Shown here in pieces: positions 1 through 32,308 of a stretch of 32,308 nucleotides of DNA. The notes under the pieces were generated by a model. The model made no database searches, was not told the DNA's origin, and was given only the letters and a program-made list of their open reading frames with translations. Position 1 is the stretch's first letter. Every line of letters begins with the position of its first letter. The translations under genes and the position numbers were made by a program. Origin of the DNA: a virus; IMG/VR virus record IMGVR_UViG_3300021254_000013, positions 1 through 32,308 of that record; one strand, 5' to 3'.

Positions 1-127
1 GAAGAGTTCTGACAGGAATCTTCAAATACAACTGCGCAGTCAACGAAATCAAGTAAAGGTTAGGGCTTAACCACAAAGCCCTTCTTAATGTCGCCGAAGG
101 CGGTCACAAGCCCGCAAAAAGACAGAG
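1..127. repeat. Terminal direct repeat, copy 1 (identical to 32182..32308)
   Basis: Base-by-base reading: gaagagttctgacagg...cccgcaaaaagacagag occurs at both ends. It contains the 3' end of the CDS 32019..32237. Confidence 0.95.
62..82 (+). other. Intergenic stem-loop AGGGCT-taaccacaa-AGCCCT
   Basis: 6-bp perfect stem and 9-nt loop, with no following T-run. It is related to the stem-loop at 31974..31996. Confidence 0.4.
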
Positions 128-147
128 TGAGAAAGAGAGAAACAAAG

Positions 148-357
148 ATGACTAAGAAAGAAATGATTAAAGAGCTTGTCCTTGCCTGGGTCAGAAACGC
201 ACCGACAAAGGAATATCGAGAGAACCGCTTCGTTGGCCATGACACAATGGAAAACCGCCTTGACAGAAAATGGACGAAAGAAGGAATCGAGTTCATCATG
301 AAGAAGTTCAAAGAAGGAAAGAACATCGACATCCTCATTGATAAATACGCATTCTAA
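148..357 (+). CDS. Hypothetical small protein (69 aa), accessory operon gene 3
   Basis: ORF track 88..357. The ATG at 148 follows a purine-rich gagaaagagaga, while the ATG at 88 has no RBS. The N-terminus is MTKKEMIKEL. Confidence 0.55.
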   Translation: MTKKEMIKELVLAWVRNAPTKEYRENRFVGHDTMENRLDRKWTKEGIEFIMKKFKEGKNIDILIDKYAF

Positions 358-373
358 GAAAGGAGAAAAAAAC

Positions 374-577
374 ATGAAAAACACAATGGAAGAGATGATG
401 CAGAAGATGAAAGAGCTTCAGGAAGCGAGACAGAACGACTTCATTGACAAGCTCTCTGACATGGTTGAGAATCTCTACGAAAAAGCCATGCTAAAGGATT
501 ACAAGCCCACCAGCCACGAGAAAGAGCAATTCAAGAAGATTCTCGAAACTATCCAAGCAATGGAGCCCTGGTTCTAG
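374..577 (+). CDS. Hypothetical small protein (67 aa)
   Basis: ORF track 338..577. The internal ATG at 374 is preceded by aaaggagaaaaaaac. Confidence 0.6.
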   Translation: MKNTMEEMMQKMKELQEARQNDFIDKLSDMVENLYEKAMLKDYKPTSHEKEQFKKILETIQAMEPWF

Positions 578-594
578 TAAAGGAGCAACGCACA

Positions 595-768
595 ATGAAA
601 TATCACGGACATATCATCAAGAAAGTTTATGACCCATCCATCGACGATGGCGGAAACCCCTGGTATTATGAAATCTACACCAAAGACGGAAAATATCTGA
701 ACAACACCTTGTTTCTTCAGAGTGCCAAGGACTACATCGACAGCAACTATGACGAAAATTATCTATGA
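595..768 (+). CDS. Hypothetical small protein (57 aa, below the ORF-track cutoff)
   Basis: Hand translation gives MKYHGHIIKKVYDPSIDDGGNPWYYEIYTKDGKYLNNTLFLQSAKDYIDSNYDENYL then TGA. The RBS aaaggag lies upstream and the ORF fills the gap between its neighbours. Confidence 0.5.
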   Translation: MKYHGHIIKKVYDPSIDDGGNPWYYEIYTKDGKYLNNTLFLQSAKDYIDSNYDENYL

Positions 769-790
769 TAAAGAAAGGAGAAAAAACATC

Positions 791-1105
791 ATGAAGCAAG
801 TCACAATTTGGAGGAGAGACATCCTGGAGAGAACAGGATTCATCAATCATCCCTACAAAGAAGTCACTCAGTTCATTGTCACTTATGGCAAGAATCTTGA
901 GTTCAAGAACGGACACCGCGAGAAGCTCGACAATCCTCGTCTCAAAGTCAAGTTTCAGAAGCGGTTCGAGACTAGAAAAAAGAAGGCGGTCGAAAACCTC
1001 GCCCAGAGCCTTGGAAGAAGCGATGCAGATAAATGGCTCAGGGAAAGACTTCAGTGTCTCCTAGGGCTAGAAAGCGCGCGTTCTGGAGAGGATTTGAAAC
1101 AATGA
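791..1105 (+). CDS. Hypothetical protein (104 aa)
   Basis: ORF track 722..1105. The ATG at 791 follows aaaggagaaaaaac. Its stop overlaps the next start (ATGA at 1102..1105). Confidence 0.65.
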   Translation: MKQVTIWRRDILERTGFINHPYKEVTQFIVTYGKNLEFKNGHREKLDNPRLKVKFQKRFETRKKKAVENLAQSLGRSDADKWLRERLQCLLGLESARSGEDLKQ

Positions 1106-1308
1106 AAAAGAAAATCAAAAACTTAAATCAAAAAGAATTAGATAAATTATGTTTAACGCATAGTTGTAGTTATTGTCCTCTTTGTATTTTAGAAGGTTCT
1201 GACTCTAATTCTAACTACTATTGTTTGACTCCCCTTGTTTTAGACAAAAAAAGGGTAAAAGAAATAATGGAAACAGAAGTTGAAGTTGAGGTTGATAAAC
1301 ATGACTGA
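1102..1308 (+). CDS. Cys-rich small protein (68 aa; C-x4-C-x2-C-x2-C plus one more Cys), AT-rich gene
   Basis: ORF track 1033..1308 with an ATG at 1102. The start overlaps the upstream stop and the stop overlaps the next start. GC is about 28-32% against about 50% in the flanks. Confidence 0.6.
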   Translation: MKKKIKNLNQKELDKLCLTHSCSYCPLCILEGSDSNSNYYCLTPLVLDKKRVKEIMETEVEVEVDKHD

Positions 1309-1495
1309 AAACAAAACAAAATACGCTCCCCAGGCGCGTTATGCCGAGAAGCTCAAGGCAAGAACTAAGATGTATCGATTCCGTCTTTACATCGACAAGG
1401 ACGCTGACATCATCGAGTTCCTGGAGAACTACTCAGGAATGGCGAGTCGATTCATCAAGGAAGCCATTCGCGAGAAGATGAGAAAAAAGAAATAG
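1301..1495 (+). CDS. Putative ribbon-helix-helix (Arc/CopG-like) protein (64 aa)
   Basis: ATG at 1301. The pattern KMYRFRLYID (strand), DADIIEFLENY (helix) and ASRFIKEAIREKM (helix) fits RHH topology. This is inference only. Confidence 0.5.
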   Translation: MTENKTKYAPQARYAEKLKARTKMYRFRLYIDKDADIIEFLENYSGMASRFIKEAIREKMRKKK

Positions 1496-1499
1496 AAGA

Positions 1500-1508
1500 T
1501 GATATAAT
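1500..1508 (+). promoter_or_regulatory. Possible internal extended -10 element TGaTATAAT
   Basis: tgatataat lies 28 nt upstream of the ATG at 1536. There is no good -35. Confidence 0.3.
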
Positions 1509-1535
1509 GGAAAAAGAAAGAAAGAGGACATTAAA

Positions 1536-1880
1536 ATGGAAAGAAAATCAGTTAACTTAAATGAAGAGAGAATCAACACCGCCGACTTACCCTTTGGAAT
1601 TAGTGAGTTCGAAGTCAGATGTGGAAGAAGGGTCTTGATTCTCGAGATTACCAAGAACGCGAATCACACCACCTTCGCTCTCTCCACCAAAGAAGGGAAG
1701 AGCAAATATGATGGCAAAGGATTGGGATTTGTCACTCTTAATACAAGAGATATGATTATCGACAAGGAGTTTGTCGCCGAATTACCTAACTTCGCCGTAT
1801 TATTCGAAGCCTTCGAGAAGTCGGCGAACAAGATGAACATTCATCAAGGCGACTTGTTGTTCCATAACATCGTAAAATAA
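1536..1880 (+). CDS. Hypothetical protein (114 aa), last gene of the accessory operon
   Basis: ORF track. RBS aagaggac upstream. Followed by a terminator. Confidence 0.65.
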   Translation: MERKSVNLNEERINTADLPFGISEFEVRCGRRVLILEITKNANHTTFALSTKEGKSKYDGKGLGFVTLNTRDMIIDKEFVAELPNFAVLFEAFEKSANKMNIHQGDLLFHNIVK

Positions 1881-1895
1881 AAAACGAACATCACA

Positions 1896-1934
1896 AAAAG
1901 AAAGAGCGGAGACAATTCTCCGCTCCTTTTTTTT
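1896..1934. terminator. Bidirectional rho-independent terminator between convergent operons
   Basis: 9-bp perfect stem gagcggaga (1904..1912) / tctccgctc (1917..1925) with loop caat. It is flanked by an A-tract upstream and ctttttttt downstream. Confidence 0.8.
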
Positions 1935-1960: not shown

Positions 1961-2650
1961 CTACATGAGAGTCTTCATCCCACCGCCAGAGTCATTCTCC
2001 TGGGTGGATTGTTCTTTGCTTTCTTTGACCTTCTTTTTGCCTTCAGAAGTGGTTGGATTTTTTAATCTCTCAACCATCGCGAGTAAATCATTGATTTTCT
2101 TATCGCGAGCTTCCTGTGCCTTCTTTTCGCGCTCCTGGCGAGCTTTCTCTTCGGCTTCGAGACGTTGCTTTTCCTTCTCGGCTTTCTTCTTCGCCTTTTC
2201 ATCGTTGAGCTTCTGAGCAGTTTCCAAAGCTTCTTGAGCTTTGCGTTGCTTTTCGGCAATTGCTTGAGGGTCAGATTTCTCGGCGAGGGACTCTACGAGA
2301 GCATTGTCGTGAGCCTCTTGAAAGTTCTCAACGATGGCAACGATGATTGCAGGGAGACCTGCGACAGCTCCAGTCTCTTTGAGGACTCGAATCCAGTCGA
2401 ACTCGCTTCCGAAAAGGGACATGATGTCGCCACTACGAATCCAAGTGTCAACGATTGCCCCAACGAAACCGAGAACGATGGGAAGGAAGACAAGGTATTT
2501 GGTGACCTTTTTCTTGCCTTCATCGCCAAGTTTCTTAATGGCAATTTTCTTGACTGGAATCTTGATGAGTTGAGTTCCAAGAAATGCGAAGATAGCGATA
2601 AGAAGAATCGAGACCCCCCATTCGGTCAAAAGATTTGCGAAAGCATCCAT
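1961..2650 (-). CDS. Holin-like membrane protein (229 aa)
   Basis: Three hydrophobic segments in the first ~115 aa, then a long K/E-rich tail. It is the last gene of the late operon after the tail fibre. RBS aaaggag. Confidence 0.5.
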   Translation of the reverse strand: MDAFANLLTEWGVSILLIAIFAFLGTQLIKIPVKKIAIKKLGDEGKKKVTKYLVFLPIVLGFVGAIVDTWIRSGDIMSLFGSEFDWIRVLKETGAVAGLPAIIVAIVENFQEAHDNALVESLAEKSDPQAIAEKQRKAQEALETAQKLNDEKAKKKAEKEKQRLEAEEKARQEREKKAQEARDKKINDLLAMVERLKNPTTSEGKKKVKESKEQSTQENDSGGGMKTLM

Positions 2651-2811
2651 TTTAAGATTTCTCCTTTCTCCTTGTTAGTTATTCGGAGTCAAGGTCTCCG
2701 TTCTTCTATATTTTCAATTAAATATAAAAGCCTTTACTAGATTTTTTGAAAGGGGAGCGAAAACTCCCATTTTTATCGACATTTTTTAGAGAAGTGGTGG
2801 AACGCTCCTCT

Positions 2812-3051
2812 TTATTTTTTGGAGAGAGAAAGTCGAACTCCTTCAATCTTGGTCTTGAGCTGTGCCTTGATATTCTCCACGAATTGATTGTATTCAGCGA
2901 ACTCTTGGGGTTTGGAATCTCTTTGTCGAAGAATAGCGAGTTCTTCGTTGATGGAATATTTTTGGCGAATTAGAGTGATGACAAGTTCTTCATAGGTCTT
3001 GTTAATTCGATTATTCTTGATAGCAACAGCGATTTTAGTTTCGAGTTTCAT
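2812..3051 (-). CDS. Hypothetical small protein downstream of the tail fibre (79 aa)
   Basis: ORF track. RBS aaaggagac. Position is typical of small conserved post-fibre genes. Confidence 0.6.
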   Translation of the reverse strand: MKLETKIAVAIKNNRINKTYEELVITLIRQKYSINEELAILRQRDSKPQEFAEYNQFVENIKAQLKTKIEGVRLSLSKK

Positions 3052-3080
3052 ATTTTAAAAAGTCTCCTTTCGTTCTTGTG

Positions 3081-5942
3081 TTATTGATTATCGACAACAA
3101 CATTTACAGCGATGTCGACTTCTTTGGCGATGAGTGCTGAAGTGTCGGTAGTGTCGACTTGTTGAGTGATTGAGCCACCTTGAATGAGATTGTCAATCCA
3201 CCCATCGTTGGGAATGGAGACATCAGTGACAATGGGGGTGGCTCTTCGATAAGCAAAAGAAACACCATTCACATAAGCTTTAAATTGTTCAGATGTCATA
3301 GATAGAGTGTCTTTGTCATGAAGGACTACCTTTTCTCCAACGACATTAAGTCTAACACCATAATCTACATCTTTTGGCTCATTAACAATTGGATATTTTG
3401 AACACAAACATTCAAGCATTTGCTTTCCAGTTATTTGAAGATTGTTGGAAACCCAGTTGCCATAACTATCAATAGTCCACGATAAATCGCCAAGATTCAA
3501 AGTGACCGACTCCTCATATCTCTTCCCTTCTTCCACATCAACATAGTCCCATTCATTTCCCTCAAACTCAATTTCAAGCGTGTCTTCTTCGTAGGGAGTA
3601 AAAGGCAAAGCGGTATCGCCAAAATTAAGCATAATTTCATTATAGATTGTTGACCTTAAACCAAACGCTACCACTCTAAAATTGACTTTGCTTTGTTCTG
3701 ACAAAGTGAAACTATATGTGGTCATTCCAGTTCTTGGATGTAAAACTGTGTCTGAAAGAAGAACTCCATTTAAGTCATATTGATTAACTTGAAGTCTATC
3801 ATCGGTTGCATAATAAGACACACAATTTAAACTGAATGTGTAAGTTCCAGCCTCTAAGATAACGGCATTTGGCAATAAATACTCTTGTGCTTGCGAAGTG
3901 TTATCATATGTCCCATTTGGAATATTTAGTAAATTAGTTTTCGTAGTCTTTAACCCAGTGATGTGGGTGTGCTTTAAGCCATCGTAGCCTTGACTCCAAG
4001 TGGTAGGAGCGACAGAACCTTGAACGAGCATTGGAGCAACTCTCATATTGTTAAAAGAGGCATTTGGTTGAATTCTTATACCAATTTTTGTTCCAATAGC
4101 TACCCCATCTGAAGCAGTTGTCAAACCACTACGTTCAATATAGTTGTAGTAATTTTCATTTAATCCAATAACGCTAGAGTTATTCACATAATTTTGAGTA
4201 AACCATTTGAGAGAATATTTAGATGTATCCATTGTATCAACTTGTGATTTGATTACATTTGGAATGTGAAAAGAAAACTCTTCACCTAAAGTATTAGAGC
4301 CATTTAAAACAAGCCAACCACCCTCGATTTTATATCTAACACCATTGATAGTTTGTTCTGCAAAATCAAGGGTTTCAATCAAGTTCTCGCTCTTCTCGGT
4401 TTTGCCAATAATCTTCGTGACTTTGCCACTGGGCATTAAATTATCCGTGATGTAGTTAATCTCGGAAGTGTAGACTTTCTCGACTTCACTCGAAATCTCA
4501 CCACGCTTTAAGGCTTCGTAAAGCTCTAATTTCGTGACATAAGTTCCCTCGACTTTTGTAAGTCTCTCATTATATCCGTTCAAAATTGCGATTGCTTCAT
4601 CGGCTTCGGAAAGTTTATTATCGACTTCCCCTTCAAGTGTGTCGATTCTTCCTTCCAACTGGGTCTGCAAAGTGGAGAACTGGGAGTCGATTTGGTTCGA
4701 CAAAGTTGTGATTCTTCCCTCGAGTTGAGTTTGCAAGGTGCTGAATCTCGTGTCGAGATTTGCCAGTTCTTGCTGAATCGTGGACTCCATATTCGTGAGA
4801 GATGTGGAGATGGTAGTGTTCATCGTGGAGATAGCTTCATCAACTCTCTGGTCAAGTGCTGTCAACTCGCCTTGAATGGTGGTCTCCATTCCAGTGATTG
4901 AGGCATTGACTTGGTTTTGCATTTGAGTGATGGCTTGCGTGATTCGAGCTTCCATCACTTCAGTTTCGTGAGTAATGATTCCGACCAAAGAATTATATTT
5001 CGTGTCGGTGTATTGTTTGCCTTCAACAAGTAAGCCGTCCGCATAACTCTTCGCAGTGGCGAGATTCGCGTCAGAATAAGCCCGTAGGAGCTCTTTGGCA
5101 CTTTCAATGGCAGAATATACCGCCCCACTATTTACGAGCTTTGTGGAGCCACTTGTGGGGGCATTGTCGAAGGAATTGTTGAGAGTAAAGGGAAGGCATG
5201 CAATGACCGCCTTGACGCTGGTTTCATCCAGATAGATGGTCACGATGGCGGTGTAGTTTTGACCTAAAGGAAGAAGGTCGGCGACATAGTAGGCATTTTG
5301 AGCGTTGTATCTTGTCTCGGTGGCCACTAAAGTGTCGTGATAAGTTGTGGCTCCGATTGTGAACTCGTAGGGAATAACGATTTGGTTATAAATAGACTTG
5401 AAGTCGGCAAAGCTCTTCTCGGTGGTTCCGAGAAGCACTCCATCTAGGAAGATGATTTCGCCTTGAGCTGTTCCGCGGATGGTATAGTCAGAAATAAACT
5501 TGTTGGATTCGAACTCATCATTGAGAGAGATTGTGACGATATCGCCTTCTTGTTCAACGGAAATCGCATCATCTCCACTTCGAATTGCCACAGGGACAAC
5601 TGCGGTGGAATCCGCAAGAGAGGGAGCAAACTCGACAGGGATATTCTCGATATTTGTCGCCATGATAGCTCCGTTCTGAGCATAGCCACGAATCATGACT
5701 TTGAATCCAGGCTTTGCCAAGAACTCGCGAGGAACTAGGACTTCATTGTCGTTGGAAAGTTCCACGTATTTCCAGTTCGAGAAATGATACTGAAAATAAG
5801 CACGTCTAGTCGGATAAGATTCCCATGAATCATCGAAAGCAAAAGCCAGTTTGACAGAGTTGTCACTCCCCTGAACTGGAAGGCTCTCGAGTGAATCAAG
5901 GGTCAAGGTCTGCTTTTCAATTGTTAAATTGATTGTTCTCAT
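3081..5942 (-). CDS. Tail fibre / receptor-binding protein (953 aa)
   Basis: Largest tail gene. It has a BppU_N-like N-terminus, a central heptad coiled coil with repeated FSTLQTQLEGRI, and two C-terminal beta-rich modules ending in ML..G motifs. Confidence 0.8.
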   Translation of the reverse strand: MRTINLTIEKQTLTLDSLESLPVQGSDNSVKLAFAFDDSWESYPTRRAYFQYHFSNWKYVELSNDNEVLVPREFLAKPGFKVMIRGYAQNGAIMATNIENIPVEFAPSLADSTAVVPVAIRSGDDAISVEQEGDIVTISLNDEFESNKFISDYTIRGTAQGEIIFLDGVLLGTTEKSFADFKSIYNQIVIPYEFTIGATTYHDTLVATETRYNAQNAYYVADLLPLGQNYTAIVTIYLDETSVKAVIACLPFTLNNSFDNAPTSGSTKLVNSGAVYSAIESAKELLRAYSDANLATAKSYADGLLVEGKQYTDTKYNSLVGIITHETEVMEARITQAITQMQNQVNASITGMETTIQGELTALDQRVDEAISTMNTTISTSLTNMESTIQQELANLDTRFSTLQTQLEGRITTLSNQIDSQFSTLQTQLEGRIDTLEGEVDNKLSEADEAIAILNGYNERLTKVEGTYVTKLELYEALKRGEISSEVEKVYTSEINYITDNLMPSGKVTKIIGKTEKSENLIETLDFAEQTINGVRYKIEGGWLVLNGSNTLGEEFSFHIPNVIKSQVDTMDTSKYSLKWFTQNYVNNSSVIGLNENYYNYIERSGLTTASDGVAIGTKIGIRIQPNASFNNMRVAPMLVQGSVAPTTWSQGYDGLKHTHITGLKTTKTNLLNIPNGTYDNTSQAQEYLLPNAVILEAGTYTFSLNCVSYYATDDRLQVNQYDLNGVLLSDTVLHPRTGMTTYSFTLSEQSKVNFRVVAFGLRSTIYNEIMLNFGDTALPFTPYEEDTLEIEFEGNEWDYVDVEEGKRYEESVTLNLGDLSWTIDSYGNWVSNNLQITGKQMLECLCSKYPIVNEPKDVDYGVRLNVVGEKVVLHDKDTLSMTSEQFKAYVNGVSFAYRRATPIVTDVSIPNDGWIDNLIQGGSITQQVDTTDTSALIAKEVDIAVNVVVDNQ

Positions 5943-10555: not shown

Positions 10556-11134
10556 TTAAGCGGTAAAGGTGGGAAGAGTGAAGGCATTTGTGAAGAGAGT
10601 CGCATATCCGCTCTGACCTTCATCAATGCGCTCTTTGATAGCGAACTTGCCGTTTGCGAGTTGAACAGGATAAGCGGTCAAGTTGATGGTGTCATTTGCA
10701 AAAGTGACGCTCTCGGTGTTGGTGGAGTGGTCTCCCTCATCAATGGAGTTGACTTCACAGATAAAGAAGACATGTCTTGCGTGTTTGGCATCGCCTTTGA
10801 CCTCGAAGCCGAGGGCAATCTTTTTCTTGACATCGTTGACGACTTGAACAAGTCCGCCTCTGGTGCTCTCTAAGTAGCCGAGAACATCCTTCTTGAACTC
10901 GTCAGAGACAACGCTCATCTCGAGTCCTAAGGTGGTCGATGTGGTAGAGGTTGCGACATAAATGACTTGGTCATCCGCATATTGAGCGGAAGTGTTGCTA
11001 TTCTCGGAGACATTAAGAGAAATCGCGGTGGGAAGGCTCTTCCATTCTCCGAAGGTGGGAGTAGTGCCTTCTGTGACCACGGCATAGTGGACGTTAGAAA
11101 GTCCAAACTTGACTTTGTTTGCTGTAGTAGGCAT
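10556..11134 (-). CDS. Major tail protein (192 aa, phi13-like)
   Basis: Position upstream of the chaperones. N-terminus MPTTANKVKFGLSNVHYAV is typical of this family. Confidence 0.8.
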   Translation of the reverse strand: MPTTANKVKFGLSNVHYAVVTEGTTPTFGEWKSLPTAISLNVSENSNTSAQYADDQVIYVATSTTSTTLGLEMSVVSDEFKKDVLGYLESTRGGLVQVVNDVKKKIALGFEVKGDAKHARHVFFICEVNSIDEGDHSTNTESVTFANDTINLTAYPVQLANGKFAIKERIDEGQSGYATLFTNAFTLPTFTA

Positions 11135-12010: not shown

Positions 12011-12378
12011 AAGCCCCACCTCACTTTGTCGAAGGCTCCTGGCTCGATTTCGAGCGCCCTGAGCACATATCTTGTCCGCCCTTTATCGTCATAGGCATCC
12101 ACGCTCGTGATTGAGTATGTCTTCAATCCGAAGAGCGGTCTTTCAAACTCAATGAAGTCGCCAGCTTTAACCGGTCGCCGATTGATTTTGAACTGGCAAG
12201 TGGACTCGATGGAAGCCTCTCGATTTCGAATGATTTCATTCGCCGAGAGCTCTCTGAACGAGCACTTGAACATCTCTTCTTCATCAGCGTTGTAGTAGTG
12301 TTTTACCCTAACAAGACCGGAGACAGAGTTGATTTCTTCGGCGTGGTAGATTCTAATTTTTCTATCGAGTCGTTCCAT
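12007..12378 (-). CDS. Head closure (head-tail adaptor) protein (123 aa)
   Basis: Synteny after the gp6-like connector, plus size. Confidence 0.6.
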   Translation of the reverse strand: MERLDRKIRIYHAEEINSVSGLVRVKHYYNADEEEMFKCSFRELSANEIIRNREASIESTCQFKINRRPVKAGDFIEFERPLFGLKTYSITSVDAYDDKGRTRYVLRALEIEPGAFDKVRWGL

Positions 12379-12715: not shown

Positions 12716-13963
12716 TTAGGCGGAAAGTTTAGCGTATTTGAAGGCGCCAGGGACAGCCTTGGCAGAAGCCTGTTGATTGACCACATAAGTGGTGGTTCCC
12801 TTAGTGGCGCTTCTTTCGGTCTCGAAGTGCATAGGCGCCATGAAGTTGACTTTGAAGAATCTTCCAACGTCGCCGAAGATGATGTCGCCAGCGACAAGAT
12901 TTTCATCGGCTTCAACAGGAGCATTGGCGATGAAACGGATACCTTCAGGGTTGTTGACAATGGGAATGACATAATCGCCGTGACTATCTTTGGAGAAGGC
13001 GACTCCGTCATAGGCAGTCTGGGAGAGATAGAGCTTAGCTCTTCTTCTATATTTGCCAGTCAAGCCTTTGATTAAGGTTTCAATGACGGCGAGTTCGCCA
13101 CCAGCGGAGTAGGTGGAAGCAGTCACTCCAGCAGTGATGCCAGAGATGTGGCCATTTAAGCCAGTGCCATAAATAACTTCGCCACCCCAGTCTTCGGAGA
13201 AGTCAGCTTCTAAGGTTTGGAGCACATAGGAGCCAAGGTCGAAGTCGGTCATGTTATTTAATTCATCAGTGACAACGAGTTGAGTCTGTAAGTTGCCGAC
13301 AACAAGGTTGAGTCTGCTCCATTCCCATTGGGCATCGGCGACGTCAGAGCCTTCAGTCTTGACTTGGGCTTTGGTTCTGGAAGCTCTATAAGGAAGAGCG
13401 ACAGCGCCTTTAATGTAAGTGGGGATTAAGTCAGCGAGAATAGGAGATAAAGCTCCGTCTTCTCTCAATAAATCTAAGACAATTAAGGTGGGGATAAGCT
13501 GACCGCCATTGTTGACACCATCGGCATTGGCGGTTGCCTGGACGAAGGTGGTGGCAGTTGTAGTCAAGGAAGTGTCAAGGGCTCTCTCCTTGATGGTTTC
13601 TTCAGTGATGGGCTTATTTCTAAGAGCCATACCGAATAAAGTGATTTGAGATTCTCTTCTGGTTAACATTTTGGGTTTTTCCTTTCTTTGAGCGACATCA
13701 TTTTTCTTTGCTTGCTCGAGTTCGCTCTGTTCTTTCTCAATCAAGCTGTCTCTTTCCTTAGTCTTGGAATCTTTTTCGGTTGCAATTTCAGCAAGGCGTT
13801 TCTCAAGATTGGAGACTTCGAGAGTTCTCTCTTCAATGCCTTTTTCATCGGCTTCTTTTAATTCGTTTTGAATCTGAGAAAGTCTTTCCTTTGATGCTTT
13901 TTCCTCGTTTTCCAAGGCAAGGAGTGCCTCGTTTAAGGCTTGAATCAATTCACGATAATTCAT
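12716..13963 (-). CDS. Major capsid protein, HK97 fold, with N-terminal coiled-coil delta domain (415 aa)
   Basis: Follows the prohead protease. Has a coiled-coil N-terminus, then a capsid-like body. Size fits. Confidence 0.9.
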   Translation of the reverse strand: MNYRELIQALNEALLALENEEKASKERLSQIQNELKEADEKGIEERTLEVSNLEKRLAEIATEKDSKTKERDSLIEKEQSELEQAKKNDVAQRKEKPKMLTRRESQITLFGMALRNKPITEETIKERALDTSLTTTATTFVQATANADGVNNGGQLIPTLIVLDLLREDGALSPILADLIPTYIKGAVALPYRASRTKAQVKTEGSDVADAQWEWSRLNLVVGNLQTQLVVTDELNNMTDFDLGSYVLQTLEADFSEDWGGEVIYGTGLNGHISGITAGVTASTYSAGGELAVIETLIKGLTGKYRRRAKLYLSQTAYDGVAFSKDSHGDYVIPIVNNPEGIRFIANAPVEADENLVAGDIIFGDVGRFFKVNFMAPMHFETERSATKGTTTYVVNQQASAKAVPGAFKYAKLSA

Positions 13964-13983
13964 GAATGGTTCTCCTTTCGTTT

Positions 13984-14655
13984 TTAGTGACTCTCTCCAG
14001 AGTCTAGCAAGCCTTTGATTTTATCGAGAAGGGCTTGTCTCTTCTTCTCGACCTCGAGCGCGTTCTTGCGGTTCTCCAACTCATCCTTTAACTTCTCCAA
14101 GTCAACGGAACGAACAGCACTAATTGAGGTGTTATCATACGCGGGGAACTCCACCGCGGAGACATCATATAATTTGCGGACTTTCTGAACATGGAAGCAG
14201 TGATTGTCCTCGTCATAGGCTTCTTGAGAGGTCGTGAAGGCGAAGGACATTCTATCGAGAAGTCCATCGCGGACATCCTTGTAGAACTGAGCGCATCTCT
14301 CGTTGTCCTTGGGGAGTTTGGCTTTGAAGTAGACGCCATCCTCACGGACTTCTAATTCAAGAGATTTGTTTCTTGTTCTAGCGACTGCGAAGTTGCCGTC
14401 TCCGTGATTGACGTTGAGAACAACGTCGGTCATGTCGGTTCCTTCAAACGAATCTCTTTCGATGACTTCTTTGATGTCATATCCGAGTCCTGTCATAGAG
14501 CCAGGATAGAGGACTGTCTCTTCTCCAAAAGTGACAGGTTTTCCTTCGACGTGATAGAAAGCATCATCGACGTTTTGAGCTTCTTCTCTTGCTTTGAGAG
14601 CTAAATCGAGAAGGCGGATTTCTCTGTCTTTTCTTTCAAAAGGGTTTTTATTCAT
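13984..14655 (-). CDS. HK97-family prohead protease (223 aa)
   Basis: The ATG at 14655 follows aaggagac and overlaps the portal stop by 8 nt. Lies between the portal and capsid genes. Confidence 0.85.
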   Translation of the reverse strand: MNKNPFERKDREIRLLDLALKAREEAQNVDDAFYHVEGKPVTFGEETVLYPGSMTGLGYDIKEVIERDSFEGTDMTDVVLNVNHGDGNFAVARTRNKSLELEVREDGVYFKAKLPKDNERCAQFYKDVRDGLLDRMSFAFTTSQEAYDEDNHCFHVQKVRKLYDVSAVEFPAYDNTSISAVRSVDLEKLKDELENRKNALEVEKKRQALLDKIKGLLDSGESH

Positions 14656-29686: not shown

Positions 29687-29706
29687 CTGTCCGTTGTTTC
29701 GGACAG
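29687..29706. promoter_or_regulatory. Operator palindrome CTGTCCG-ttgttt-CGGACAG
   Basis: Perfect 7-6-7 inverted repeat over the predicted +1 of the cro promoter. A further TGTCCG half-site lies at 29724..29729 in the promoter spacer, and a CGGACA at 29463..29468. Confidence 0.6.
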
Positions 29707-29816: not shown

Positions 29817-30164
29817 ATGAACTTGGAAGAAATGAAAACTTGTTCCCAGCGCATCAAGGCTCTAAGAGAAGAGAGAGACATGTCTTTGAGACAATTCGCC
29901 GAGCTCCTTGATGTTAAGAAGTCGACCCTTTATGACTGGGAGAATGGTCATGTTGAATCAATGAAGACCTCATCCATTAAAAAGATTGCGGACATGTGTC
30001 TGGTCTCCCCTTTGTGGGTTATGGGATACGATGTGCCAAAGGAAAGAGAAACGAAAGAACACGAAGGTCTCAGGAAGAAGATTGAGGATGAGATGCTCTC
30101 CATGTCGATGGAAGACCTCATCAACTTGGAGAAGTTCATCCACACATTTATAAATAAGGAGTGA
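29817..30164 (+). CDS. CI-like XRE-family repressor (115 aa), no peptidase domain
   Basis: HTH MSLRQFAELLDVKKSTLYDWENG. Divergent from cro and upstream of int. RBS ggaggtg. Confidence 0.8.
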   Translation: MNLEEMKTCSQRIKALREERDMSLRQFAELLDVKKSTLYDWENGHVESMKTSSIKKIADMCLVSPLWVMGYDVPKERETKEHEGLRKKIEDEMLSMSMEDLINLEKFIHTFINKE

Positions 30165-30170
30165 GCACGC

Positions 30171-31325
30171 ATGAGTTATAAGAAAATAAATGGAAAATAT
30201 CGAATCACGATTTCATATCCATTGAGCAACGGAAAATATGGGCGACTTTATGCGAGCGCAGAAACGCTCAAAGAGGCGAAAGAGAAAGAAGCCCTCATGA
30301 CTGCTCAAGTAAAGGGTCAGAAGCCTTCAGTGGCGACTTTTGGAGCCCTCTCGGAGCTTTATCTTGAGAGCTGTGTGGGAAAGCTCCGAACCACCACAAT
30401 TCAACAATATCGGAACTCATTGAAACATCATGTTCTCCCTTACTTCAAAGACTCGGTCTTCATCAAGATTTCGATTGAAGAGCTTCGAAGATGGAGAGCC
30501 AGTGAGATTGAGAAGGGTTATTCTCTGGAGACCTTATCCAAGGGAAAGAAAGCCATCAACTGCGTTGTTGCCTTTGCTCAAAGAGAGTATGACTTGACGA
30601 ACAACGCATTCCATAAGCTTGAACCATTCAGAAGGAATCCGGATGAAGTCGAAGAAGAAGGGATTCGGTTCTGGACGCTCCCTCAGTTCCAAGAGTTCGA
30701 GAGAACAATCAAAGCCGAACTCGAGAGAACTGACCCATGGTCTCCTAAGTATATCGGACTCTCTTCCACGTATGCTTTGTGCGCCATCTGCTTTTTTGCC
30801 GGTCTTAGAAGAGGCGAAGCGAACGCTCTCAAGGTCGAGGACTACCACGACAATGGAGTCCACCCCTTCCTTGATGTCAAGCGCTCCGTTGCTCAAAAAG
30901 CCGGAAAGGGAATCGGCTATCTCGTGACCCCACCGAAGAGCAAACGCTCCGTGAGGAAGGTTCCTGTTCCTTACGCTCTGGAAGCCATCCTTCGTGACCA
31001 CTTGCGTGTTCTCGCTCGCGTTCCTGGGTTCTCCCCTTCCTTCTGGTTAGTTGGCGGATATAAAATCACTCCAGACGAAACCATCAACGTGAACTTCAGG
31101 CGCTTGGCCGACAAAGCCGACCTTCCACCCATCACGATTCACGAGTTGCGTCACTCTTATGCCACGATGCTATATAACAGCGGAGCTTCTTTGGCAGTCA
31201 TAGCCAAGTTGATGGGTCATACTATAACCAAGGTCACGGAGCTCTATTCTCACACTTATGATGAGACTCTCGACAATGCAGTTGCTCTCCTGGATAAGCT
31301 CGAGAACAGCGCACTTCATCGTTAA
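30171..31325 (+). CDS. int: Tyrosine integrase (384 aa)
   Basis: AGLRRGEANAL (box I Arg), HELRHSYAT (H-x-x-R) and GHTITKVTELYSH (catalytic Tyr region). Confidence 0.9.
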   Translation: MSYKKINGKYRITISYPLSNGKYGRLYASAETLKEAKEKEALMTAQVKGQKPSVATFGALSELYLESCVGKLRTTTIQQYRNSLKHHVLPYFKDSVFIKISIEELRRWRASEIEKGYSLETLSKGKKAINCVVAFAQREYDLTNNAFHKLEPFRRNPDEVEEEGIRFWTLPQFQEFERTIKAELERTDPWSPKYIGLSSTYALCAICFFAGLRRGEANALKVEDYHDNGVHPFLDVKRSVAQKAGKGIGYLVTPPKSKRSVRKVPVPYALEAILRDHLRVLARVPGFSPSFWLVGGYKITPDETINVNFRRLADKADLPPITIHELRHSYATMLYNSGASLAVIAKLMGHTITKVTELYSHTYDETLDNAVALLDKLENSALHR

Positions 31326-31330
31326 TAAAA

Positions 31331-31376
31331 GAGGGCTACTTGAGTATATACTTAAGTATATTCAAGAGCCCTTTTT
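31331..31376 (+). terminator. Terminator-like hairpin after int
   Basis: agggct (31332..31337) pairs with agccct (31367..31372). The inner palindrome is atatacttaagtatat. Followed by ttttt. Confidence 0.6.
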
Positions 31377-31379
31377 CGA

Positions 31380-31640
31380 TGGAAAAACTGACCGAAAAAA
31401 AAACGAAAAAATTATAAAAAACGAAAAAAAACCGAAAATATTTTAAGACTTTTTTAAGCTATAAGTCACACTAAATCACACAAAAAGCCCATAAACACGA
31501 TACTTTTTCGCTTTTTGTCACATTTGCTCATTTGTTTTTTTCAGCCTCTTCAGCTCCACCATATCGCCAAAAAACGCCCATTTTATGGGCTTTTTTTAAT
31601 TCTCGACCGAAAATAAAACGAAAATATTTTTAATTTTTTT
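31380..31640. other. Putative attP region with repeated A-rich arm-type motifs
   Basis: Lies downstream of int. ACCGAAAATATTTTAA (31431) matches ACGAAAATATTTTTAA (31618), and GACCGAAAA occurs at 31390 and 31605, all flanking a ~150-bp centre. Confidence 0.4.
31569..31597. terminator. Bidirectional terminator inside the att region
   Basis: aaaaaa-c-GCCCAT-ttt-ATGGGC-ttttttt. Confidence 0.7.
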
Positions 31641-31649
31641 ATTTTTTTG

Positions 31650-31678
31650 TTGCATAGTGTCCTACACTAGTTTATAAT
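31650..31678 (+). promoter_or_regulatory. Near-consensus sigma70 promoter of the accessory operon: TTGCAT - 17 nt - TATAAT
   Basis: -35 at 31650..31655 and -10 at 31673..31678. The palindrome TAGTGT-cct-ACACTA (31655..31669) sits in the spacer, and a third half-site TAGTGTC lies at 31678..31684. Confidence 0.7.
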
Positions 31679-31724
31679 AGTGTCAGAAGCAAAGAAATGA
31701 ACGCTTCGGAACAGGAGACCTTAA

Positions 31725-31961
31725 ATGACCACAAAGAGCATTTACAACAAAATTGAAGCCATCGTCGAAGCCATCGACGAACTCAAGGAAGAACTCGAAG
31801 ACAAGAAGACAGCAATCGAGGACAAAGCAGCCGAGCACGACAGAGACCTGACTGACAAAGAACAAGAGCGCTGGGATGACCTAGACGAACAAATCAACGC
31901 CCTTGACGATTGCATCGACAATCTGCAAAGCGCACAATCCGACATCGAAAACTGGGCATAA
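31725..31961 (+). CDS. Hyper-acidic helical protein (78 aa; 25 D/E, 9 K/R)
   Basis: ORF track. RBS caggagacc. First gene after the promoter. Confidence 0.7.
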   Translation: MTTKSIYNKIEAIVEAIDELKEELEDKKTAIEDKAAEHDRDLTDKEQERWDDLDEQINALDDCIDNLQSAQSDIENWA

Positions 31962-31973
31962 GCCAAAGGGTTC

Positions 31974-31996
31974 CAGGGCTCCCACCAAAAGCCCTG
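31974..31996 (+). other. Intergenic stem-loop CAGGGCT-cccaccaaa-AGCCCTG
   Basis: 7-bp perfect stem and 9-nt loop, with no T-run. Related to the stem-loop at 62..82. Confidence 0.4.
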
Positions 31997-32018: not shown

Positions 32019-32237
32019 ATGACAAAGAAAGAAATCATCAAGGAAATCGGACTCGATAACTACTACGGAGCAAAGCAAGGAATTGCTGACATAGCTTTGT
32101 TTAGTTGTAGCAAGGAACTCTTGGAGACTGCTCTCATCACTTGGAAATCCAATCCAACATCACAAACAAGAGAGTTTATTGGAAGAGTTCTGACAGGAAT
32201 CTTCAAATACAACTGCGCAGTCAACGAAATCAAGTAA
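32019..32237 (+). CDS. Hypothetical small protein (72 aa; alternative start 32001)
   Basis: The ATG at 32019 follows aaagaggaaagaaaa. The N-terminus is MTKKEIIKEI. Its 3' end lies in the terminal repeat. Confidence 0.6.
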   Translation: MTKKEIIKEIGLDNYYGAKQGIADIALFSCSKELLETALITWKSNPTSQTREFIGRVLTGIFKYNCAVNEIK

Positions 32238-32308
32238 AGGTTAGGGCTTAACCACAAAGCCCTTCTTAATGTCGCCGAAGGCGGTCACAAGCCCGCAAAA
32301 AGACAGAG
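32182..32308. repeat. Terminal direct repeat, copy 2 (identical to 1..127)
   Basis: Same 127-nt string as 1..127. Confidence 0.95.

Follow-up and report, generated by a model that had tools for sequence, protein, structure and literature searches.

This work deals with a block of nine small genes (g1 to g9) beside the integrase gene of a phage contig, the IMG/VR record IMGVR_UViG_3300021254_000013, whose whole stretch of 32,308 nucleotides (nt) constitutes the window analyzed here. We show that a single sigma-70-type promoter drives a row of exchangeable single-gene cassettes whose ends are conserved, and that the spacer between g2 and g3 encodes what, judged by its sequence, is a type-P1 twister self-cleaving ribozyme. 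Our best reading overall, in which we place about even trust, is a modular cargo operon that adjoins the phage attachment site (attP) and is of the ribozyme-associated prophage kind, not a nine-protein machine. In this sense, the locus belongs to a known but unexplained kind, and its new content is the twister within a well-resolved, shuffling cassette array. The original prediction for this DNA had taken the nine genes for one undescribed system that may travel as a unit; the co-occurrence check across relatives failed, and only g8 and g9 turned out to be constant.

A row of exchangeable cassettes

The ends of the window are identical, positions 1-127 being an exact copy of positions 32182-32308 (127 bp). 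The contig therefore represents a circle of 32,181 bp, and the junction crossed by the block is an assembly overlap, which duplicates the end of g2, a hairpin (hairpin B, described below) and part of the twister. The nine open reading frames (ORFs) proposed earlier on the + strand were confirmed, each of the nine with a purine-rich Shine-Dalgarno (SD) sequence upstream. Their products, in amino acids (aa), with isoelectric points (pI) where informative, are:

31725..31961, + strand: g1, 78 aa, pI 4.1, net charge -16, coiled-coil-like; variable cargo
32019..32237, + strand: g2, 72 aa; variable cargo; the final 56 nt are repeated at window positions 1-56
148..357, + strand: g3, 69 aa, basic; variable cargo; first gene of the predicted downstream cleavage product
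374..577, + strand: g4, 67 aa, helical, acidic; found in the window and as an identical copy in contig L005 only
595..768, + strand: g5, 57 aa; variable cargo, in 6 of 10 arrangements
791..1105, + strand: g6, 104 aa, basic (pI 10); variable cargo
1102..1308, + strand: g7, 68 aa, with five cysteines (CxxxxCxxC...C)
1301..1495, + strand: g8, 64 aa, pI 10; last but one, kept in every array
1536..1880, + strand: g9, 114 aa; always last in the close lineage

The exact protein sequences of eight of the nine genes occur in public gene calls, and g1 is encoded identically in L005. For g1, g2, g3, g5, g8 and g9, which are those with full-length orthologues in relatives, the ratio of nonsynonymous to synonymous substitution rates (dN/dS) was 0.04-0.34; this purifying selection indicates that the six are real genes. 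The sequence does contain the two overlaps described between neighbors, ATGA at 1102 and ATGACTGA at 1301. The second of these joins g7 to g8, and g7 has a guanine-cytosine (GC) content of 28% (22% at third codon positions, GC3) versus 39-48% in all its neighbors. Present in the window and L005 only and inserted between g6 and g8, with which its start and stop codons overlap, g7 appears to have been gained recently from a source of low GC content. We found no match for g6 in IMG/VR or GenBank phages, and tblastn of g5, g6 and g7 against 50,697 GenBank phage records gave no match. Additionally, the N-termini of g2 (32019-32048) and g3 (148-177) are alike, MTKKE(I/M)IKE(I/L), with unrelated remainders, and both genes follow a hairpin element; the common N-terminus may be a recombination joint.

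Related contigs, numbered here with an L, were gathered via g9, g2 and the holin-like protein encoded next to the block. Their backbones are about 90% identical in DNA and the content of the slot differs, as listed below, where x1 to x10 are genes that the window does not have.

Window and L005: g1-g9
L001, L019, L020: x1 x2 g3 x3 g5 g8 g9
L002, L003: x4 x5 g8 g9
L004: x6 x7 g3 g5 g6 g8 g9
L006: g1 g2 x8 g5 g6 g8 g9
L013: x9 x5 g6 g8 g9
L021: g1 g2 g3' x10 g5 g8 g9
L007 and L009 (partial): start x9 g1 g2 g3

In total, the slot holds at least 19 unrelated families in eight arrangements, with 4-9 genes per array and a collinear order; g1, for example, is present in 5 of the 10 arrangements examined. 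Two parts are constant, namely the end with the promoter and 5' untranslated region (5'UTR) and the end formed by g8, g9 and the terminator, g8-g9 being always last in the close lineage. In an otherwise conserved phage backbone (~90%) no other part varies as much as the block, which thus behaves as accessory cargo and bears out the character that the original prediction had given to it. The same prediction had named homologues scattered singly among phages as an observation that would speak against a single system; the genes do not co-occur in the relatives, and by that yardstick the single-system reading therefore fails. The block owes its length to the accumulation of cassettes of one gene each and not to a large machine, and this constitutes a caution that a long ORFan operon need not be one system.

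A distant phage, L023, whose holin-like protein is 49% identical to that of the window, extends the comparison. In it, int is directly followed by a promoter, a homologue of x5, a new 100-aa gene and, in last place, a 63-aa homologue of g8 (38-43% identical), without g9. Its cargo operon begins 139 bp after int, and a repeat-rich spacer (TGGCACACTTTTGGCACACTTTTT twice) follows the g8 homologue; these two intervals of L023 are at 10657-10983 and 12112-12250. Relative to the presumed attP, the block of L023 and that of the window appear to be on opposite sides. L023 also has, beside its repressor gene and on the lytic strand, a 142-aa gene (13949-14377) with a match to the S-AdoMet synthetase N-terminal domain.

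All cargo products have 52-166 aa, are acidic or basic and contain no membrane segment (highest 19-residue hydropathy 1.19). In accordance with the earlier remark that no family is recognizable, searches of Pfam, PHROGs, NCBIfam and PADLOC returned no match for the nine proteins, apart from low-complexity coiled-coil matches of g1, which are noise. Searches of Pfam and PHROGs with ten alternative cargo proteins of the relatives gave only two PHROGs, both of unknown function. No homologue of known anti-CRISPR or anti-defence proteins was found among the nine window proteins (Pfam, PHROGs, NCBIfam) and the ten alternative ones (Pfam, PHROGs), none of these libraries being dedicated to anti-defence proteins.

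The predicted twister ribozyme between g2 and g3

The g2-g3 spacer, which the original prediction had left unremarked, is the only non-coding DNA common to the window and L023, and it holds a match to the Rfam twister family RF03160. The structured elements of the upstream half of the block are:

31975..31995, + strand: hairpin A, AGGGCTCCCACCAAAAGCCCT, after g1 (dG -17.5, z -2.0)
62..82, + strand: hairpin B, AGGGCTTAACCACAAAGCCCT, immediately before the ribozyme on its 5' side; repeated at 32243-32263 within the overlap
82..133, + strand: predicted type-P1 twister self-cleaving ribozyme without the optional P3 stem (RF03160)

The match covers model positions 1-68 of 68 with 54.1 bits (E 7.9e-11 in a 2-kb search and 1.3e-9 in the whole window), and the element at 82-133 is the only one of its class in the window. 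Independent RF03160 matches were obtained in L002 (54.3 bits), L001 (41.2 bits) and L023 (35.5 bits), and none in L013. For the analysis of covariation, the RF03160 family structure was written onto nine distinct copies, with slid alignments as controls. In these nine copies 99.3% of the cells are paired and compensatory changes occur in 9 of 16 pairs, compared with two pairs at most in the slid controls. Stem P2 appears as UGUC/GACA, UGCU/AGCA or UCAU/AUGA and P4 varies as well, with three compensated pairs in each. Both pseudoknots are 100% paired: T1 (columns 24-26 with 50-52) is CAC/GUG or UCC/GGA, with two pairs compensated, and T2 (columns 12-13 with 29-30) is GC/GC or AC/GU, with one pair compensated. 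The minimum-energy fold gives P1, P2 and P4 in the family order, with both ends in P1, and the conserved core is present (UUAA, GC, GGUCACAAGCCCG, AAAG and GAG), a C-to-A change in the loop being compensated in T1.

The element thus described shares with type-P1 twisters (RF03160) the order of P1, P2 and P4, the T1 and T2 contacts, the UAA motif of the cleavage site and the GGUC(A/C)CAAGCCCG loop. It differs in that the window copy does not have P3 and in that T1 is GUG/CAC or GGA/UCC (compensated), whereas the family has GGG/CCC. In the twister family cleavage takes place at U5-A6, and P3 and P5 are optional (PMC6154101); the predicted cleavage of the window copy would fall between U86 and A87.

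The surroundings of the ribozyme change from one relative to another. It lies 1.1 kb downstream of int, and its flanking genes differ among relatives: it follows unrelated genes (g2, x2, x5, x6) and precedes unrelated genes (g3, x7, x8, g8). A stable hairpin is always found directly 5' of P1, with a different sequence in L001 and in L027, a contig described below. The hairpin motif AGGGCT-N-AGCCCT is confined to these blocks (0.02 expected per window) and occurs once or twice per array; the hairpin A element follows the unrelated gene x1 in L001. We also considered the spacer hairpins as mimics of CRISPR repeats or as another RNA family, and rejected this idea, as the Rfam E-value scans listed the twister alone above noise.

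The same pattern was found in L027 (MT835475.1), an unrelated 80-kb human-gut phage contig, where two type-P1 twisters flank an 81-aa ORF. A different hairpin stands directly before the first twister, and a type II hammerhead ribozyme, scoring above its gathering score, lies 3.5 kb upstream; the three elements are at 409-473, 3997-4048 and 4409-4467, both twisters being sub-threshold. The twister core of L027 was the sole similarity to the block that a sensitive blastn retrieved from the 50,697 GenBank phage records.

Transcription signals and the terminal genes g8 and g9

The signals that delimit the block, from the end of int to the end of the array, are:

31328..31376, + strand: int terminator, long hairpin and U run, first upstream insulator (dG -26.4 kcal/mol, z -7.3)
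31569..31597, both directions: hairpin of a bidirectional terminator, GCCCAT...ATGGGC between A and T runs; second insulator
31650..31678, + strand: block promoter, -35 TTGCAT, 17-nt spacer, -10 TATAAT, A/T-rich tract upstream; conserved
31655..31669, unstranded: perfect 15-bp palindrome TAGTGTCCTACACTA between -35 and -10, candidate operator
1500..1508, + strand: TGATATAAT, extended -10 motif in the g8-g9 spacer, candidate g9 promoter
1901..1928, both directions: two-way intrinsic terminator, end of the block and of the convergent late operon (dG -20.6, z -5.7)

The position given earlier for the promoter stands and is conserved; its description as near-consensus was overstated, as the -35 matches the consensus in just 3 of 6 positions, for which reason it was missing from the list of a consensus scan. 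The promoter and 5'UTR are kept in L001, L002 and L003 up to the SD or start codon despite unrelated first genes. The two terminators on the int side shield this promoter from read-through of cI and int. The second of them sits between the presumed attP region and the block promoter and is conserved in relatives; 33 nt of its region are 91% identical in L023. The strong bidirectional terminator proposed for the end of the block was confirmed at 1901-1928. With its own promoter, its own terminator and the two int-side terminators, the block is indeed the autonomous, insulated transcription unit of ORFan genes that had been described.

The palindrome TAGTGTCCTACACTA is invariant among relatives and has no other perfect copy in the window, where 0.41 matches are expected at two mismatches or fewer. 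A different perfect palindrome of 20 bp, CTGTCCGTTGTTTCGGACAG, lies at 29687-29706 in the cI/cro spacer beside a TTGACA-16-TAAAAT promoter; it is likely the cI/Cro operator and unrelated to that of the block promoter. Control of the block by cI was rejected, as the two palindromes differ. A third half-site at 31677-31684 was likewise discarded, not being kept in relatives, and a hairpin of the 5'UTR at 31686-31707 is thermodynamically undistinctive (z -0.24).

At the other end, TGATATAAT is the only TGnTATAAT of the window and lies 27 nt before the g9 start. The 40-nt g8-g9 spacer is 95% conserved, above the flanking coding DNA, and the extended -10 motif is found in 7 of 7 relatives; g9 may therefore have its own promoter.

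With identities of 95-98%, g8 is the best-conserved protein of the block and the sole gene found in every array including the distant lineage, which makes it our candidate regulator. Its relatives among 5.8 billion proteins are all at least 95% identical. The sequence pattern of g8 hints at a ribbon-helix-helix (RHH) protein, a fold that the original prediction had considered possible, and this identity found no support: Pfam gave no RHH match (E up to 1), the AlphaFold monomer is all-helical with a predicted local distance difference test score (pLDDT) of 68 and residues 10-31 form a helix at low confidence, Foldseek found no match for the model, and hhalign against a hand-made RHH profile, which is a weak test, gave a probability of 0.4%, the same as shuffled controls.

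The relatives of g9 among the 5.8 billion proteins are all at least 83% identical, and an exhaustive HMMER search of 1.84 billion representatives added two true distant relatives of 33-35% identity, both on short contigs amid other small genes, with no relative of g8 seen there. The model of g9 (pLDDT 76, predicted template modeling score, pTM, 0.71) has a five-strand sheet and a C-terminal helix. Nothing like it was retrieved from PDB or BFVD, Pfam and structure searches showed neither a toxin domain nor a fold match for g9, and PDB sequence searches with g8 and g9 returned no match.

Possible working of the block and its setting in the phage

The modular cargo operon would work as follows. 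Cleavage by the ribozyme between U86 and A87 would divide the polycistronic mRNA in two: a g1-g2 part that has hairpin B as a cap at its 3' end and terminates in a 2',3'-cyclic phosphate, and a g3-g9 part that begins with a 5'-OH and has the body of the folded ribozyme immediately ahead of the ribosome-binding site of g3, so that the two halves could differ in stability and translation. The palindrome between -35 and -10 would be the operator and the basic g8 most likely its repressor, by analogy with acr-aca operons, and g9 may also come from its own extended -10 promoter. The cargo would most likely bind or modulate host proteins (counter-defence, which is the most plausible, or host takeover) and not form a defence system, and the exchange of cassettes may be aided by the conserved ends and the RecT-like recombinase of the phage. 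On this view the block may carry anti-defence or host-interaction cargo under g8 control.

Several observations weigh against this modular cargo reading. No cargo protein resembles a known anti-defence, defence, toxin or regulator family in the library searches, and the proposed function is therefore drawn from the architecture alone. For g8, no DNA-binding fold was found by Pfam, AlphaFold monomer, Foldseek or hhalign. As it lacks the optional P3 stem, the twister does not reach the Rfam gathering score (54.1 bits versus 67.2). Furthermore, L013 keeps the hairpin without the ribozyme, which indicates that the latter is dispensable at least sometimes.

The comparison with known systems places the block among several of them. 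Morons, known from lambdoid and HK97-type phages, are units of promoter, gene and terminator inserted among conserved genes. Like them, the block is an autonomous unit, here with the attachment region on one side and the end of the late operon on the other, and its genes are present or absent among close relatives; the foreign base composition of morons is seen in g7 only, most cassettes sharing the composition of the phage, and the block differs from a moron in being a multi-cassette array with predicted internal RNA processing and not a single gene. Integron arrays, too, consist of exchangeable single-gene cassettes read in a row from one promoter, with structured elements in some of the spacers. 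An integron cassette array was nevertheless rejected for the window, whose integrase is not of the IntI type and whose cassette boundaries do not each carry an attC-like element; unlike in integrons, most junctions of the block are of 16-22 nt and hold a ribosome-binding site only, and the structured spacer is the predicted ribozyme.

In acr-aca operons (PMC13551039, PMC9410906, PMC6765145), small and fast-changing ORFans are accompanied by a conserved distal small gene and an inverted repeat in the promoter, as in the block; the inverted repeats at acr promoters are binding sites of Aca repressors, one of which, Aca14, is a ribbon-helix-helix protein (PMC13551039, PMC9410906). The block differs from them in that its cargo has no match to known Acr or anti-defence proteins, g8 matches no Aca, helix-turn-helix (HTH) or RHH family, and g9 follows g8. 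Beyond the promoter repeat and the pattern of variable cargo with a constant terminal gene, no defining feature of acr-aca operons was found.

The closest likeness is to the ribozyme-flanked prophage blocks (Perreault et al. 2011, PMC3088659; PMC6765202; PMC8782182), which are integrase-adjacent, contain variable small genes and have a ribozyme in a polycistronic spacer; the gut contig L027, with two twisters and a hammerhead, presents the same pattern. Small variable phage genes near the integrase, punctuated by self-cleaving ribozymes, have been described before (PMC3088659, PMC4604425, PMC8782182). Bacterial hammerheads near prophage integrases flank variable genes and were proposed to process long phage RNAs, and in Agrobacterium hammerhead arrays flank the anti-restriction gene ardA (PMC3088659). 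The twister shares the gene associations of the hammerhead, for a reason left undetermined in that work (PMC6765202), and a differential fate of the parts of an mRNA was proposed for such ribozymes and never pinned down (PMC3088659, PMC6765202). Here, in contrast to the several hammerheads of those blocks, each array has one twister; around it, cassette shuffling at the population level is resolved, together with a conserved promoter that bears a candidate operator and a terminal gene that is conserved as well.

Since 2011-2014 it has been asked what brings bacterial ribozymes of the twister and hammerhead classes together with small phage genes in the vicinity of integrases (PMC3088659, PMC6765202). 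The one promoter, the hairpin-preceded ribozyme, its changing flanks and the ribozyme-less L013 make a differential fate of the two mRNA halves directly testable. A bolder version would see the twister as a post-transcriptional switch of a counter-defence operon, uncoupling the promoter-proximal inhibitors from the distal g8 repressor and g9, and we consider it rather improbable. If it were true, it would be the first defined natural role for bacterial twister ribozymes, the ORFan cassettes of at least 19 families would be a reservoir of new anti-defence proteins and g9 a new fold. In any case, the cassettes are candidates for new host-interaction or anti-defence proteins.

Other explanations of the block have to be weighed against the modular cargo operon. 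One possibility, which we hold to be unlikely though not negligible, is that the genes are lysogenic-conversion or prophage-defence cargo, expressed from the resident prophage and protecting or changing the host as classical morons do. The own promoter and terminator, the orientation shared with cI and int and opposed to the lytic genes, and the proximity of the attachment region are consistent with it, and the candidate promoter of g9 would escape control through the palindrome. However, known defence proteins are mostly large enzymes and exclusion proteins mostly membrane-bound, unlike these products, which are small (52-166 aa) and soluble, with no known domains and no PADLOC match; and an operator inside the main promoter suggests shut-off for part of the cycle.

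Alternatively, the block may be phage housekeeping, with g8 as excisionase (recombination directionality factor) or another regulator of the lysis-lysogeny decision and the rest dispensable early genes. This would fit a basic protein of 64 aa encoded near int and attP and conserved in both lineages, the more so as the g8 homologue of L023 adjoins the repeat-rich spacer that probably holds attP and no excisionase is recognizable elsewhere in the genome. Yet g8 matches no excisionase or HTH family, in the window lineage seven cargo genes and a distance of 1.9 kb separate it from the presumed attP, and we judge this explanation decidedly unlikely. A toxin-antitoxin or addiction pair formed by g8 (a small DNA-binding antitoxin) and g9 (a toxin), with the upstream genes as passengers, seems to us very improbable: in the close lineage the two genes are invariably neighbors at the end of the array, the g8 product is a small basic protein and the promoter has its palindrome, but L023 keeps g8 without g9, so that their co-occurrence is not obligate, the distant g9 relatives stand among other small genes with no g8 relative on those short contigs, g9 has no toxin domain or fold match, and a 40-nt spacer with a candidate promoter parts the two genes. 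That all nine genes are parts of one undescribed multi-protein (anti-)defence system, working and moving as a unit, is the least credible, notwithstanding the tight packing, the one promoter and one terminator and the two overlapping junctions, given the variety of the slot, which in ~90% identical backbones is filled by 4-9 genes belonging to at least 19 families, the restriction of g4 and g7 to the window and L005, the foreign base composition of g7 (28% GC) and an L023 that shares x5 and g8 only.

The genome is that of a temperate siphovirus-type phage. The - strand encodes TerL, an HK97-type capsid protein, a tape measure protein, a RecT-like annealing protein, a replication initiator and a Cro-like HTH protein. 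The genes adjoining the block on its two sides are:

29817-30164, + strand: cI-like HTH repressor
30171-31325, + strand: tyrosine integrase (int), a phage-type tyrosine recombinase, starting seven bases after the cI-like gene
1961-2650, - strand: neighboring 229-aa product with three hydrophobic segments and a Lys/Glu-rich tail, holin-like

Megablast of 25 kb against GenBank phages gave no match, so that no relative at the DNA level was found there, and the nearest TerL proteins are those of Clostridioides phages (37% identity). The locus was found in no cultured genome in two scans of genome collections, one with the g9 protein and the other with the hairpin and twister pattern; the sample names suggest rumen metagenomes as the source of the related contigs. 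No tRNA genes are present in the window. The original prediction had located the block between attP and the lysis end of the late operon. The block does adjoin the int/attP region and runs in the opposite direction to the late genes, the position of attP being a presumed one; as for the lysis end, the adjacent 229-aa gene is holin-like and no recognizable endolysin was found near the end of the late operon. A soluble product of 79 aa is encoded at 2812-3051 on the - strand, and neither it nor the 229-aa product has a match in Pfam or PHROGs.

Some further differences between the window and its relatives lie outside the block. At about 2650-5942 the window has a 953-aa fibre gene and no reverse transcriptase; there, between the tail genes and the holin-like gene, close relatives have a 370-aa reverse transcriptase (RVT_1; L001 11374-12486, L002 5915-7027, L019 11585-12697), two small genes and a 471-aa DUF6273 protein. 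This RVT_1 and DUF6273 region looks like a diversity-generating retroelement. A 176-aa DUF4352 gene stands between cI and int in L002 (1014-1544) and L013 (3543-4073) and is absent from the window; the cI-int interval is a second variable accessory slot in the relatives. Finally, an A-rich repeat, CGAAAA(T/A)AAAACGAAAATATTTT..., occurs in three copies within 31393-31454 and 31608-31640, two of them in the presumed attP region and one directly upstream of the -35 of the block promoter; these repeats may be integrase arm sites or an UP-like element.

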